The translations under genes were made by a program, and so were the position numbers. Below, piece after piece: positions 18,377-61,402 of a stretch of 64,000 nucleotides of DNA; the stretch's first letter is position 1, and the number at the start of each line of letters is the position of its first letter. The notes under the pieces are model-generated. The model was not told the origin of the DNA. It did not search any database and worked only from the letters and a program-made list of their open reading frames with translations. Origin of the DNA: Escherichia phage vB_EcoM_PHB13; sequence record MK573636. One strand, given 5' to 3'.

Positions 18377-18405
18377 TTGACTTTCTGGTGATAGGGCTAT
18401 ATTAT
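18377..18405 (+). promoter_or_regulatory. sigma70-type promoter upstream of the transglycosylase gene
   Basis: AATGCTTGACT ... TATATTAT; -35 overlaps a TGCTT MotA-box-like motif. Confidence 0.4.
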
Positions 18406-18439: not shown

Positions 18440-19030
18440 ATGTTAAAAGTTCTAAAAGCGATAGTATTGAGTCTGTCACTAGCCGTTGGTGCTACACACG
18501 CATCGACTAGCGCACCGATCAAAAAAGCGCCGATAGACAACTTTACAGCACACCAACTAGATAATTTACATTTCGCCTATCAATACGGCGAACAATTCGA
18601 GAAAAGCGGTAAGTTGAAAAAGCACCATCCGAATATTCGCTATAACGGAAAGGGTTTAGGCCACATCCTGGCGGGTATCGCATGGCAAGAATCAAGCGCG
18701 GGTGCAAACTTAGCACCAAAGAAAAATCATCATGCTTATGGATTATTTCAAAATTACCTTAAAACGGTGAAAGCGAAAAATGCAAAGCGCGGTGTTAAAA
18801 TGAGTGATCGCCAGACTATCAACTTTATAATGAATCGCGAGGTTTCTGCATTCTACGCGATGGATGAGTTAGCATACTGGCTGGATGTTCGAAACGGTAA
18901 TATCCGACTCGCGCTAGCTTCTTACAATGCAGGATGGAACTATAAAGCCGGTTTAGGTTATGCTGATGATGTACTAAAAAAGGCTAACCATCTAAAGAGT
19001 AAAGGCATTCTTAAAACTAAACGCTATTGA
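18440..19030 (+). CDS. secreted lytic transglycosylase-like protein (SLT domain)
   Basis: 196 aa; N-terminal signal peptide (MLKVLKAIVLSLSLAVGATHA); SLT signature AWQESS...GLFQ...YNAG. Confidence 0.6.
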   Translation: MLKVLKAIVLSLSLAVGATHASTSAPIKKAPIDNFTAHQLDNLHFAYQYGEQFEKSGKLKKHHPNIRYNGKGLGHILAGIAWQESSAGANLAPKKNHHAYGLFQNYLKTVKAKNAKRGVKMSDRQTINFIMNREVSAFYAMDELAYWLDVRNGNIRLALASYNAGWNYKAGLGYADDVLKKANHLKSKGILKTKRY

Positions 19031-19037
19031 GGAATGT

Positions 19038-19397
19038 ATGAAAAAGTTGACAATAATTGCTATGATTGCTATGATGTTCTCTGCTGGTGCGCTTGCTAGT
19101 AATGAGCGACCTTATCCAAAGTTCGAATACAAAGGATTTGAGATCAACAAAAAGATCATTAAAACCTTCTGTGATGATGATAACATGTGTAGCGATTTTA
19201 TAGCACTTGAACTCGACGAAGCCTATAAACAAGGTCGAGATGAAAAACGAAAAAATCGAGCGTGGGATCTGAGTATTGCCAGCTTTGCTAAAACAAAACG
19301 CAATCTGTGTGATACTGCCCCTGATAAGCAATTATGCTTTGCCTATCGAGACACACTGTTAAGCCGTTTTATGGCTGGGTTGTCTTCCCGTGACTAA
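19038..19397 (+). CDS. secreted hypothetical protein
   Basis: 119 aa with cleavable signal peptide (MKKLTIIAMIAMMFSAGALA) and four Cys; immediately downstream of the SLT gene. Confidence 0.45.
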   Translation: MKKLTIIAMIAMMFSAGALASNERPYPKFEYKGFEINKKIIKTFCDDDNMCSDFIALELDEAYKQGRDEKRKNRAWDLSIASFAKTKRNLCDTAPDKQLCFAYRDTLLSRFMAGLSSRD

Positions 19398-19412
19398 TTA
19401 GAGGTTTATATT

Positions 19413-19868
19413 ATGATTATTGATACTGTAAAGGGCGATCTCATCGCCCTGTTTAAACAAGGAAACGGTCATTTAATTCATGGTTGTAATTGTTTTCATA
19501 CTATGGGCGCTGGTATTGCTGCAAAGATCGCGAAAGAGTTCCCACAAGCGTTAGAGATTGACAAGCAAACTTCTCGCGGTAAGGTAGAAAAGCTGGGTGG
19601 GTTTAGTGTCTGGACGCATCAAGTTAATGGTTATAATTGGTGCGGGGTGAATCTCTATACCCAATTCCGACCGGGTCCAAATGCTGAATATGGTGCTATC
19701 CTGAAAGGATTTGAGACTATCAATGATGTTTTTGAAGGTGCTATACAGCCTTTCTATATTCCTAAAATCGGTTGCGGTATCGGTGGCCTTGAGTGGGAAT
19801 GTGTAGAAGAGATCATTAATATTGCTACTCCAGACATTAACATTGTGGTGGTTGAATATGACAAATAA
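19413..19868 (+). CDS. macro-domain protein (putative ADP-ribose binding / ADP-ribosylhydrolase)
   Basis: 151 aa; Gly-rich motifs (HGCNCFHTMGAGIAAKIA and IPKIGCGIGGL) in macrodomain-like arrangement. Confidence 0.5.
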   Translation: MIIDTVKGDLIALFKQGNGHLIHGCNCFHTMGAGIAAKIAKEFPQALEIDKQTSRGKVEKLGGFSVWTHQVNGYNWCGVNLYTQFRPGPNAEYGAILKGFETINDVFEGAIQPFYIPKIGCGIGGLEWECVEEIINIATPDINIVVVEYDK

Positions 19869-20052
19869 AAATGATCTATATTCCGGTGATTGGGTGAAAC
19901 GTCAGTCTGTAGAAAACGTAACTTGTTTTCGTTGTTTCACTGAATACAATATAAAAACCGCTCCTGTTAGTGTTCCAAAGACAGACGGGTATTATATTAA
20001 AGAACCGCATTGCCCTAAATGTAAATGTCGATTATATTGGAGTCATCTATGA
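19858..20052 (+). CDS. Cys-rich zinc-ribbon-like small protein
   Basis: About 64 aa with CxxC...CPKCKC motifs. Confidence 0.4.
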   Translation: MTNKNDLYSGDWVKRQSVENVTCFRCFTEYNIKTAPVSVPKTDGYYIKEPHCPKCKCRLYWSHL

Positions 20053-20267
20053 ATAAGCCTAATACCGCTCACATGAAGGAAAACTGCCGTTGTGGTAGAT
20101 GTGGTTGGCCTATCATCTTCACTTGCTGTAACGACGATATGCAGCGTTTACCGTGGGGAATGTGGGATTGGTGGATGTATTGCAGCAATAAAGGTTGCGA
20201 CCATCATGAAGGTGAAGGAGTCTTTCAGGAAACACCTGATTGGGTGGAGGTGATAGAAAATGCTTGA
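20049..20267 (+). CDS. Cys-rich small protein
   Basis: About 72 aa with CRCGRCG and CCND...CSNKGC motifs. Confidence 0.4.
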   Translation: MNKPNTAHMKENCRCGRCGWPIIFTCCNDDMQRLPWGMWDWWMYCSNKGCDHHEGEGVFQETPDWVEVIENA

Positions 20268-60898: not shown

Positions 60899-61402
60899 AT
60901 GCAATTTACACCAGAAGAACTTAACATCATTGATGAGGTGATGAACTCTAAAGAAAATATCGATATGTCGATCCTTAATGGATTGATTGAAAAGACTGAG
61001 CGGTTAGTGCATCATGAAGCCTTGTATCGCGGTGTGAGCAAAAGAGAAGGTCGTAAGCTGGATACCTTAATTGTAGGCGATTCTTTCGTTGTAGAGCGTC
61101 CTATGAGCTTTACGCCACTGCAATCAACAGCAGAGGACTTTGCAACCGATGTTTATGCAACAGGAAAGATTATTGCAATAAAACCTACCAAGCCTTGCAT
61201 GAATTATTACGAACATGCTATTGACCGAGTGGTGTCTAAAGAGTATGACAATCCGACTACTCGACTGTCTTTGTATGCTATGTTGGCAGATGAGCGCGAG
61301 TGCATATACAAGACAGGGACGACCATGATCCTTGACGAGATCGAGGAAGTTTACGCGTGTAATGGCGATCTGATAGAGATTTACAAATTTTCTTTAATTT
61401 AA
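60899..61402 (+). CDS. putative mono-ADP-ribosyltransferase (ModA/ModB-like)
   Basis: 167 aa with an ordered R (ALYRGVSKR) - S/T (MSFTPLQST) - ExE (DERE) triad like R-S-E ADP-ribosyltransferases; position corresponds to T4 modA/modB between 56 and srd. Confidence 0.4.
   Translation: MQFTPEELNIIDEVMNSKENIDMSILNGLIEKTERLVHHEALYRGVSKREGRKLDTLIVGDSFVVERPMSFTPLQSTAEDFATDVYATGKIIAIKPTKPCMNYYEHAIDRVVSKEYDNPTTRLSLYAMLADERECIYKTGTTMILDEIEEVYACNGDLIEIYKFSLI

Follow-up and report, generated by a model that had tools for sequence, protein, structure and literature searches.

DarT2 ADP-ribosylates thymidines in single-stranded DNA and thereby blocks replication, and the macrodomain of DarG2 reverses this modification (PMC11825919). 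When a transposon library of T4 was screened by HIDEN-SEQ on a host expressing DarTG2, tk.4 was the single significant match; a clean deletion of tk.4 makes T4 sensitive to DarTG2, and the gene was renamed adfM, for anti-DarT factor macrodomain (November 2025 preprint, bioRxiv 10.1101/2025.11.20.689424). The evidence from T4 is genetic, and removal of ADP-ribose from DNA by Tk.4 is a proposal made in that preprint (bioRxiv 10.1101/2025.11.20.689424). For another phage macrodomain, PhiKZ gp104, removal of DarT2 marks from DNA has been shown in vitro (PMC13309987). In T4, an equivalent role against the guanine-modifying DarT1 is played by the product of gene 30.3 (AdfN), which has a NADAR fold (PMC11825919). 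Among bacterial proteins, SCO6735 of Streptomyces coelicolor efficiently hydrolyzes the thymidine-ADPr DNA made by DarT and protects cells from DarT (PMC9411070). Its activity on thymidine-ADPr DNA has been reconfirmed, and human TARG1 (OARD1) also cleaves this substrate (PMC12879935).

The window analyzed here is a stretch of 64,000 nucleotides from Escherichia phage vB_EcoM_PHB13 (MK573636), which is about 97% identical to Krischvirus, that is, to the RB49-like relatives of T4. It contains an ORF of 151 codons; the RB49 annotation names it tk.4, and in W115 it is called “macro domain protein.” The encoded protein (151 vs 155 amino acids) is 44% identical to T4 Tk.4 over its full length (E 9e-45), with which it shares the motifs NLYTQF, HGCNCFHTMG, and P-x-IG-x-GIG, and a tblastn search of the window with T4 Tk.4 gave positions 19413-19862 as the sole match. 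The gene order regB–vs.1–vs–tk.4–(small ORFs)–tk is common to the window, RB49, and T4; in the window, the neighbors of the ORF are vs, vs.1, three small ORFs, and tk. Based on sequence and gene order, the ORF is the syntenic ortholog of T4 tk.4 (adfM), from which it differs by 56% sequence divergence and by other small ORFs before tk. The anti-DarTG2 phenotype is known for T4 only, and a literature search on Krischvirus and DarTG found nothing. Compared with its RB49 ortholog, the gene has eight nucleotide differences, six synonymous and two nonsynonymous, which points to purifying selection. Since these differences are mostly synonymous and full-length homologs at 40 to 68% identity occur in many phages, the ORF, judged from sequence comparison, clearly codes for a protein. 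The gene and the candidate signals upstream of it are as follows.

18377..18405, plus strand: candidate sigma70-type (early) promoter, TTGACT-17-TATTAT, 10/12, upstream of vs.1–vs–tk.4; consensus match only.
19047..19075, plus strand: candidate sigma70-type promoter, TTGACA-17-TATGAT with TG, 11/12, 340 nt before tk.4; consensus match only.
19400..19404, plus strand: Shine-Dalgarno sequence AGAGG, 8 nt before the tk.4 ATG, as read from the sequence.
19413..19868, plus strand: tk.4/adfM ortholog, encoding a 151-aa stand-alone macrodomain of the TARG1/ALC1-like class, Gln type; ATG at 19413 and TAA at 19866-19868, as read from the sequence.

Upstream, vs stops 16 nt before tk.4 starts; downstream, the next small gene begins with an ATG at 19858 and so overlaps the final 11 nt of tk.4. 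Such tight packing is typical of T4-type early gene clusters. The gene lies within a same-strand block of nonstructural genes, and both a location in the early region and early expression are plausible. The late motif TATAAATA was sought upstream of and near tk.4, and none was found. The whole region contains 33 sigma70-like matches, a slight excess over the 25.4 ± 4.7 in shuffled sequence; because shuffled sequence is barely exceeded, the matches near tk.4 are suggestive at most. The candidate promoter at 19047..19075 falls inside the vs ORF (19038..19397), within its initial 40 nt; it could be fortuitous, or it could drive an mRNA without the vs start and with tk.4 as its first gene.

Some features of the neighboring genes were recorded alongside. 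In the product of vs.1 (18440..19030, plus strand), Pfam recognizes a lytic transglycosylase domain (SLT; 6.7e-06, above cutoff), and the N terminus resembles a signal peptide; the Vs protein has an N-terminal hydrophobic segment that is likewise signal-peptide-like. The two small ORFs directly 3′ of tk.4 (19858..20052 and approximately 20050..20267, plus strand) encode Cys-rich, zinc-ribbon-like proteins (CxxC...CxxC) that match PHROGs 4864 and 2306, of unknown function. They hold the place of T4 tk.3/tk.2, and the first of them is translationally coupled to tk.4 via the 11-nt overlap.

A sequence-only reading of this stretch had called the ORF a macrodomain on account of Gly-rich motifs and had suggested a Macro HMM and structure prediction as checks; both give a macrodomain. 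The Pfam Macro profile (PF01661) matches the protein with 28.7 bits, above the gathering cutoff of 22, over profile positions 1 to 118 of 118, and PHROG 335 (“phosphatase”) matches with 1e-61. An AlphaFold2 model built on 100 homologs (pLDDT 97.6, pTM 0.91) has the three-layer α/β/α macro fold. Foldseek searches against the PDB with this model retrieved the macrodomains of TARG1, DarG, Poa1p, BT1257, and SCO6735 with E values of 1e-11 to 1e-6 and TM scores of 0.7 to 0.8. The top match was TARG1 (PDB 4J5R; E 7.5e-11, TM 0.76-0.82, 29% identity). Altogether, 186 PDB entries matched at E<=1e-3, and the best 50 of the 186 are natural macrodomains (TARG1, DarG, Poa1p, viral nsP3/Nsp3) and designed OSH55 serine hydrolases. 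Among solved structures, the closest in sequence are the Mycobacterium tuberculosis DarG macrodomain, BT1257, SCO6735, and human TARG1. The above-cutoff Pfam score, the confident model, and the structural matches confirm that the protein is a macrodomain of the TARG1/ALC1-like hydrolase class.

The Gly-rich motifs correspond to the two loops that bind the phosphates of ADP-ribose, M31-G-A-G-I-A36 and P117-x-I-G-C-G-I-G-G125, and both vary little or not at all among 100 homologs. The ADP-ribose pocket (D9, N26, the G32-A36 loop, and the P117-G125 loop) is conserved, and ADP-ribose binding is predicted. The active site was mapped with HMMER alignments to DarG, TARG1, and SCO6735, and conservation was counted in 258 family members.

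19488..19490, plus strand: codon of Asn26, the distal-ribose/catalytic Asn, equivalent to N22 of DarG, N23 of PhiKZ AdfM, and N27 of SCO6735 (alignments to DarG and SCO6735).
19506..19520, plus strand: codons of G32-A36 (G-A-G-I-A), first phosphate-binding loop; G34 and A36 are invariant and the others >=92% conserved.
19662..19664, plus strand: codon of Gln84, at the position of the catalytic Lys80 of DarG, Lys84 of TARG1, and Gln85 of SCO6735 (HMMER alignments).
19761..19787, plus strand: codons of P117-G125 (P-K-I-G-C-G-I-G-G), second diphosphate-binding loop; P117 is invariant, and G120 and G122 vary little if at all.

Asn26 is invariant (258/258 family members), and Gln is found at position 84 in 254 of the 258; T4 Tk.4 has it too, in the same NLYTQF motif. 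The second member of the TARG1 Lys84/Asp125 dyad aligns with Gly124, a position at which 255 of the 258 members have Gly or Ala. With Gln84 in place of the Lys and Gly124 in place of Asp125, the alignments indicate that the known Lys or Lys/Asp chemistry cannot operate in the Tk.4 lineage. The absence from this lineage of the catalytic Lys found in DarG, TARG1, and PhiKZ AdfM appears to be an unreported point. When the family profile was compared with PDB sequences, the two best scores were obtained for the Gln-type proteins BT1257 (1.9e-16) and SCO6735 (9.8e-15), followed by TARG1 (1.8e-14) and the DarGs (4.5e-13 to 2.7e-9), at modest margins.

SCO6735 (PDB 5E3B), a Gln-type ALC1/TARG1-like protein, provides a chemical precedent. 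It shares with the phage protein the fold, the Gln at the catalytic-Lys position, the locking Asn, and the Gly-x-Gly loop (Gly126/Gly128, equivalent to G120/G122), and it too stands alone, without a cognate DarT. SCO6735 needs these same Asn, Gln, and Gly residues: the Q85A variant is inactive and the N27S variant almost completely so (PMC9411070). The mechanism proposed for it is water mediated and backbone assisted, with the Gln positioning the distal ribose (PMC9411070). Since the Tk.4 family lacks the Lys (and the Asp) and has the Asn26/Gln84 pair, an SCO6735-like mechanism is likely; hydrolysis would be Lys independent and water mediated, and Gln84, held by Asn26, would position the distal ribose. 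The two proteins differ in that they are only approximately 23% identical and in that SCO6735 is a DNA-damage-inducible protein of a bacterium, not of a phage. They also differ in a mobile loop that in SCO6735 carries Lys89/Lys94, residues contacting DNA or diphosphate; the loop of the phage protein (QFRPGPN) is five residues shorter, and Ala33 is found at the position of Lys34, another residue that contacts DNA.

The macrodomains of DarG (DarG2) from Thermus aquaticus and M. tuberculosis (PDB 5M3E, 5M3I) share the fold, the class, the Asn (N22), the presumed thymidine-ADPr single-stranded DNA substrate, and the logic of neutralizing DarT2. The phage protein differs from them in having Gln84 where DarG has Lys80, and it has neither the C-terminal DarT-binding domain nor an adjacent darT. 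The NCBIfam DarG model (NF048014) matched with 48.4 bits, compared with a cutoff of 250, and over the N-terminal 141 of the 338 profile positions only. Membership in the DarG antitoxin family was rejected on these grounds, namely, the score below the cutoff and the missing Lys80, C-terminal domain, and darT neighbor.

The PhiKZ protein carries the name AdfM as well (gp104; Cell Rep 2026, PMC13309987) and is likewise a stand-alone phage macrodomain that counters DarTG2. It is approximately 26% identical to the protein described here, is of the DarG2-like Lys type (N23/K78), is imported into the phage nucleus, and belongs to a separate lineage with a different active site; the shared name is incidental, and identity was rejected. 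Identity with AdfB of ICP1 was also rejected, as AdfB is a 77-aa DarT binder that is not a macrodomain. T4 AdfN is a functional analog, being an orphan, antitoxin-like eraser of DarT-made ADPr on phage DNA, but its fold is unrelated and it acts on the guanine-ADPr made by DarT1 instead of the thymidine-ADPr made by DarT2 (PMC11825919). A tblastn search of the window found no homologs of AdfN/NADAR, AdfA/61.2, or Alt, including no AdfA next to the primase gene 61. In RB49 (AY343333), genes of these kinds are found in the part of the genome outside the window: a 30.3/AdfN (NADAR) ortholog at 125609..126088 (38% identity to T4), alt at 112391..114442, and, at 111489..112313, an additional ORF whose product is similar to the C-terminal portion of Alt.

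The best explanation of these data, and one we consider probable, is that the Krischvirus Tk.4/AdfM ortholog hydrolytically removes DarT2-made thymidine-ADP-ribose from phage DNA. According to this proposal, the protein would be a stand-alone ADP-ribosylglycohydrolase, probably expressed early. DarT2 would place ADP-ribose on thymidines of single-stranded phage DNA; the Tk.4 ortholog would bind the ADP-ribose and cut the thymine–ribose bond, and a replicable template would be restored. Protection from DarTG2 would then come from the phage itself, as an “orphan antitoxin” activity. We infer that the anti-DarTG2 role is the same as that of the T4 ortholog, and the catalytic action on DNA and its chemistry are proposed on the same footing. 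The sequence-only reading had suggested counterdefense by mimicry of a macrodomain antitoxin, which agrees with the sensitization of T4 to DarTG2 upon knockout of tk.4/adfM and is already published for T4. The anti-DarTG2 role is thus already described for the T4 ortholog and, with the macro domain annotation in W115 already in place, the gene itself is known; the points of remaining interest are the Gln-for-Lys active site and the macrodomain–NADAR fusions described later.

Several considerations count against this explanation. The protein is only 44% identical to T4 Tk.4, for which the evidence is genetic and comes from a preprint. It lacks Lys34 and the Lys89/Lys94 loop of SCO6735, and the way in which SCO6735 binds DNA would not be simply transferable. 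Finally, the family is huge (8,864 clusters) and has a bacterial member, from Pelagimonas, with no DarT nearby, for which reason some members may have other or wider substrates. The Pelagimonas homolog stands alone among housekeeping-type genes, like SCO6735, and no darT was found near it; this is a single case and weak evidence.

On a wider scale, the Tk.4/AdfM lineage could be the phage branch of the Lys-less (Asn/Gln) stand-alone “genome-protector” macrodomains, represented by SCO6735 and BT1257, and not a captured DarG. T4-like and nucleus-forming (PhiKZ, Lys-type) phages would then have acquired anti-DarT2 macrodomains independently and with different chemistry, and the Gln-type enzymes would possibly have wider substrates than DarG (DNA, and possibly protein or RNA). 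We put this forward tentatively, giving it slightly less than an even chance. If the de-ADP-ribosylation of DNA holds true, the Lys-independent mechanism of the SCO6735 type would extend to a very large phage family, and two types of macrodomain would appear to have been convergently recruited against the same toxin.

Among the other functions considered, three are about equally improbable. First, the protein could be a metabolite enzyme, either an ADP-ribose-1″-phosphate phosphatase or an O-acetyl-ADP-ribose deacetylase, that tidies up NAD-derived molecules or feeds NAD salvage. PHROG 335 and the T4 annotation read “phosphatase / A1pp motif,” the ADPR-1″-phosphatase Poa1p ranks high in the structural comparison (E about 1e-9, rmsd 4.7 Å), TARG1-like enzymes hydrolyze OAADPr (PMC8120803), and in an Acinetobacter phage a homolog adjoins a nicotinamide phosphoribosyltransferase gene. 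However, the “phosphatase” label was inherited from the historical name of the domain and not from an assay, and the phenotype revealed by T4 genetics is specific to DarTG2. The catalytic signature is that of the DNA hydrolase SCO6735, and the fusion partners are NADAR domains, which are DNA-ADPr hydrolases. We therefore regard a metabolic role as unlikely.

Second, Tk.4 could act without catalysis, as a stoichiometric antitoxin mimic that binds DarT2 or merely ADP-ribosylated DNA. Catalytically dead variants of SCO6735 (Q85A), DarG (K80A), and TARG1 (K84A) still inhibit DarT in vitro by interaction (PMC9411070), and AdfA and ICP1 AdfB, with which other phages counter DarT, act by direct binding. 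A pure binder is improbable here, however, since the protein has no DarG-like C-terminal DarT-binding domain and since the residues for hydrolysis (N26, Q84, G120, and G122) have been kept across thousands of diverse phage and bacterial homologs, which indicates a conserved enzymatic activity and not coevolution with the surface of one toxin.

Third, and no more probable, the protein could be a broader eraser that takes ADP-ribose off Asp/Glu-modified proteins or RNA, besides or instead of thymidine-ADPr DNA, and counters other ADP-ribosylating toxins. SCO6735 and TARG1 also demodify proteins (PMC9411070; PMC8120803), RNA ADP-ribosylating defenses exist (PMC11825919), and the macrodomain family is huge and mostly without a link to DarT. 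On the other side, tk.4 was returned in the T4 screen with DarTG2 alone among the systems tested, and no phenotype of a broader eraser has been reported. Removal of DarT2 marks from phage DNA remains the reading that we prefer over these three.

The sequence-only reading had also paired the macrodomain, as potential eraser, with a Mod-like ADP-ribosyltransferase (ART), as writer, encoded further downstream.

60899..61402, plus strand: modB-like Arg-type ADP-ribosyltransferase (PHROG 832, 1e-20); tblastn matches are annotated modB or ADP-ribosylase.

The identification of this ORF stands: besides the PHROG match, its counterpart is annotated modB in RB49 and Phi1, and R44, S70, and E132xE134 align with the R-S-ExE motif of T4 ModB. 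The pairing, on the other hand, was rejected because of the linkage chemistry and the distribution of the two genes. CTX-type R-S-ExE enzymes modify arginine. The resulting type of linkage, Arg-ADPr, is reversed by hydrolases of the DraG/ARH family; the substrates of TARG1-like macrodomains, by contrast, are Asp/Glu esters, OAADPr, and thymidine-ADPr DNA (PMC8120803). By tblastn, 2,731 phage records spread over many unrelated genera contain a homolog of the macrodomain, among them Cba120 and phages of Pseudomonas, Vibrio, and Acinetobacter, compared with 299 records for Mod, all of them T4-like; Mod proteins diverge fast, so the latter number is an undercount. It is thus highly improbable that the macrodomain erases the marks (or RNAylation) that the phage’s own ModB/Alt/ModA leave on host proteins: a ModB homolog is present in the same window, RB49 also has alt and the ORF like its C-terminal part, and both tk.4 and the modB-like gene lie in regions of nonstructural, early-type genes, but the Arg chemistry, the unequal distribution, the DarTG2-specific phenotype of the T4 knockout, and the distance of 41 kb between the two genes all speak against such a pair. 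The ModB-like ART is probably not functionally coupled to the macrodomain. It is shorter than T4 ModB (167 vs 207 aa), lacking the N-terminal approximately 29 residues and having an internal segment that is 11 residues shorter, and the window has one mod gene compared with the modA–modB tandem of T4.

The 2,731 records with a Tk.4 homolog were found among 50,697 phage records and include phages of Escherichia, Klebsiella, Salmonella, Pseudomonas, Vibrio, Acinetobacter, Aeromonas, and others. Of clusters formed at 50% identity, an exhaustive profile search matched 1,353 at E<=1e-30 and 8,864 at E<=1e-10; these are mostly stand-alone proteins of approximately 150 aa. In most of the approximately 2,700 phage genomes with a homolog, the gene is labeled “hypothetical protein” or “phosphatase”; it can now be named an AdfM-type macrodomain and a probable anti-DarTG2 factor. 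This naming would aid host-range prediction for therapeutic T4-like, Vequinta-, Felixouna-, and Ackermann-type phages on strains that carry DarTG. Krischvirus Tk.4 is 68% identical to homologs from Vequintavirinae (AlexBoehm, EduardKellenberger) and 44 to 50% identical to those of T4 and other Tevenvirinae, and this closer relationship to the Vequintavirinae suggests that tk.4 has been exchanged horizontally between unrelated coliphage groups.

Longer family members were also observed. In three of them a NADAR domain is fused to a Tk.4-type (Gln) macrodomain, and in two the partner is DUF4326; the fusion proteins include P0242 (378 aa), P0190 (472 aa), P0202 (570 aa), and P0156 (302 aa). If both domains serve DNA de-ADP-ribosylation, the joining of erasers of thymidine-ADPr and guanine-ADPr in one protein is to be expected, and, going by their domain content, the macrodomain–NADAR proteins would in effect be single-chain combinations of AdfM and AdfN. 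DUF4326 may be a further ADP-ribose-related module. For one macrodomain–NADAR fusion whose context was sought, the only contig is 1.5 kb long and gives no information. Finally, a record labeled “Campylobacter phage A147” (MG065644.1, 143 kb) encodes a homolog that is 67.5% identical to the Krischvirus protein and is typical of the Vequintavirinae of Escherichia coli, so the host or the label of this record may be wrong.
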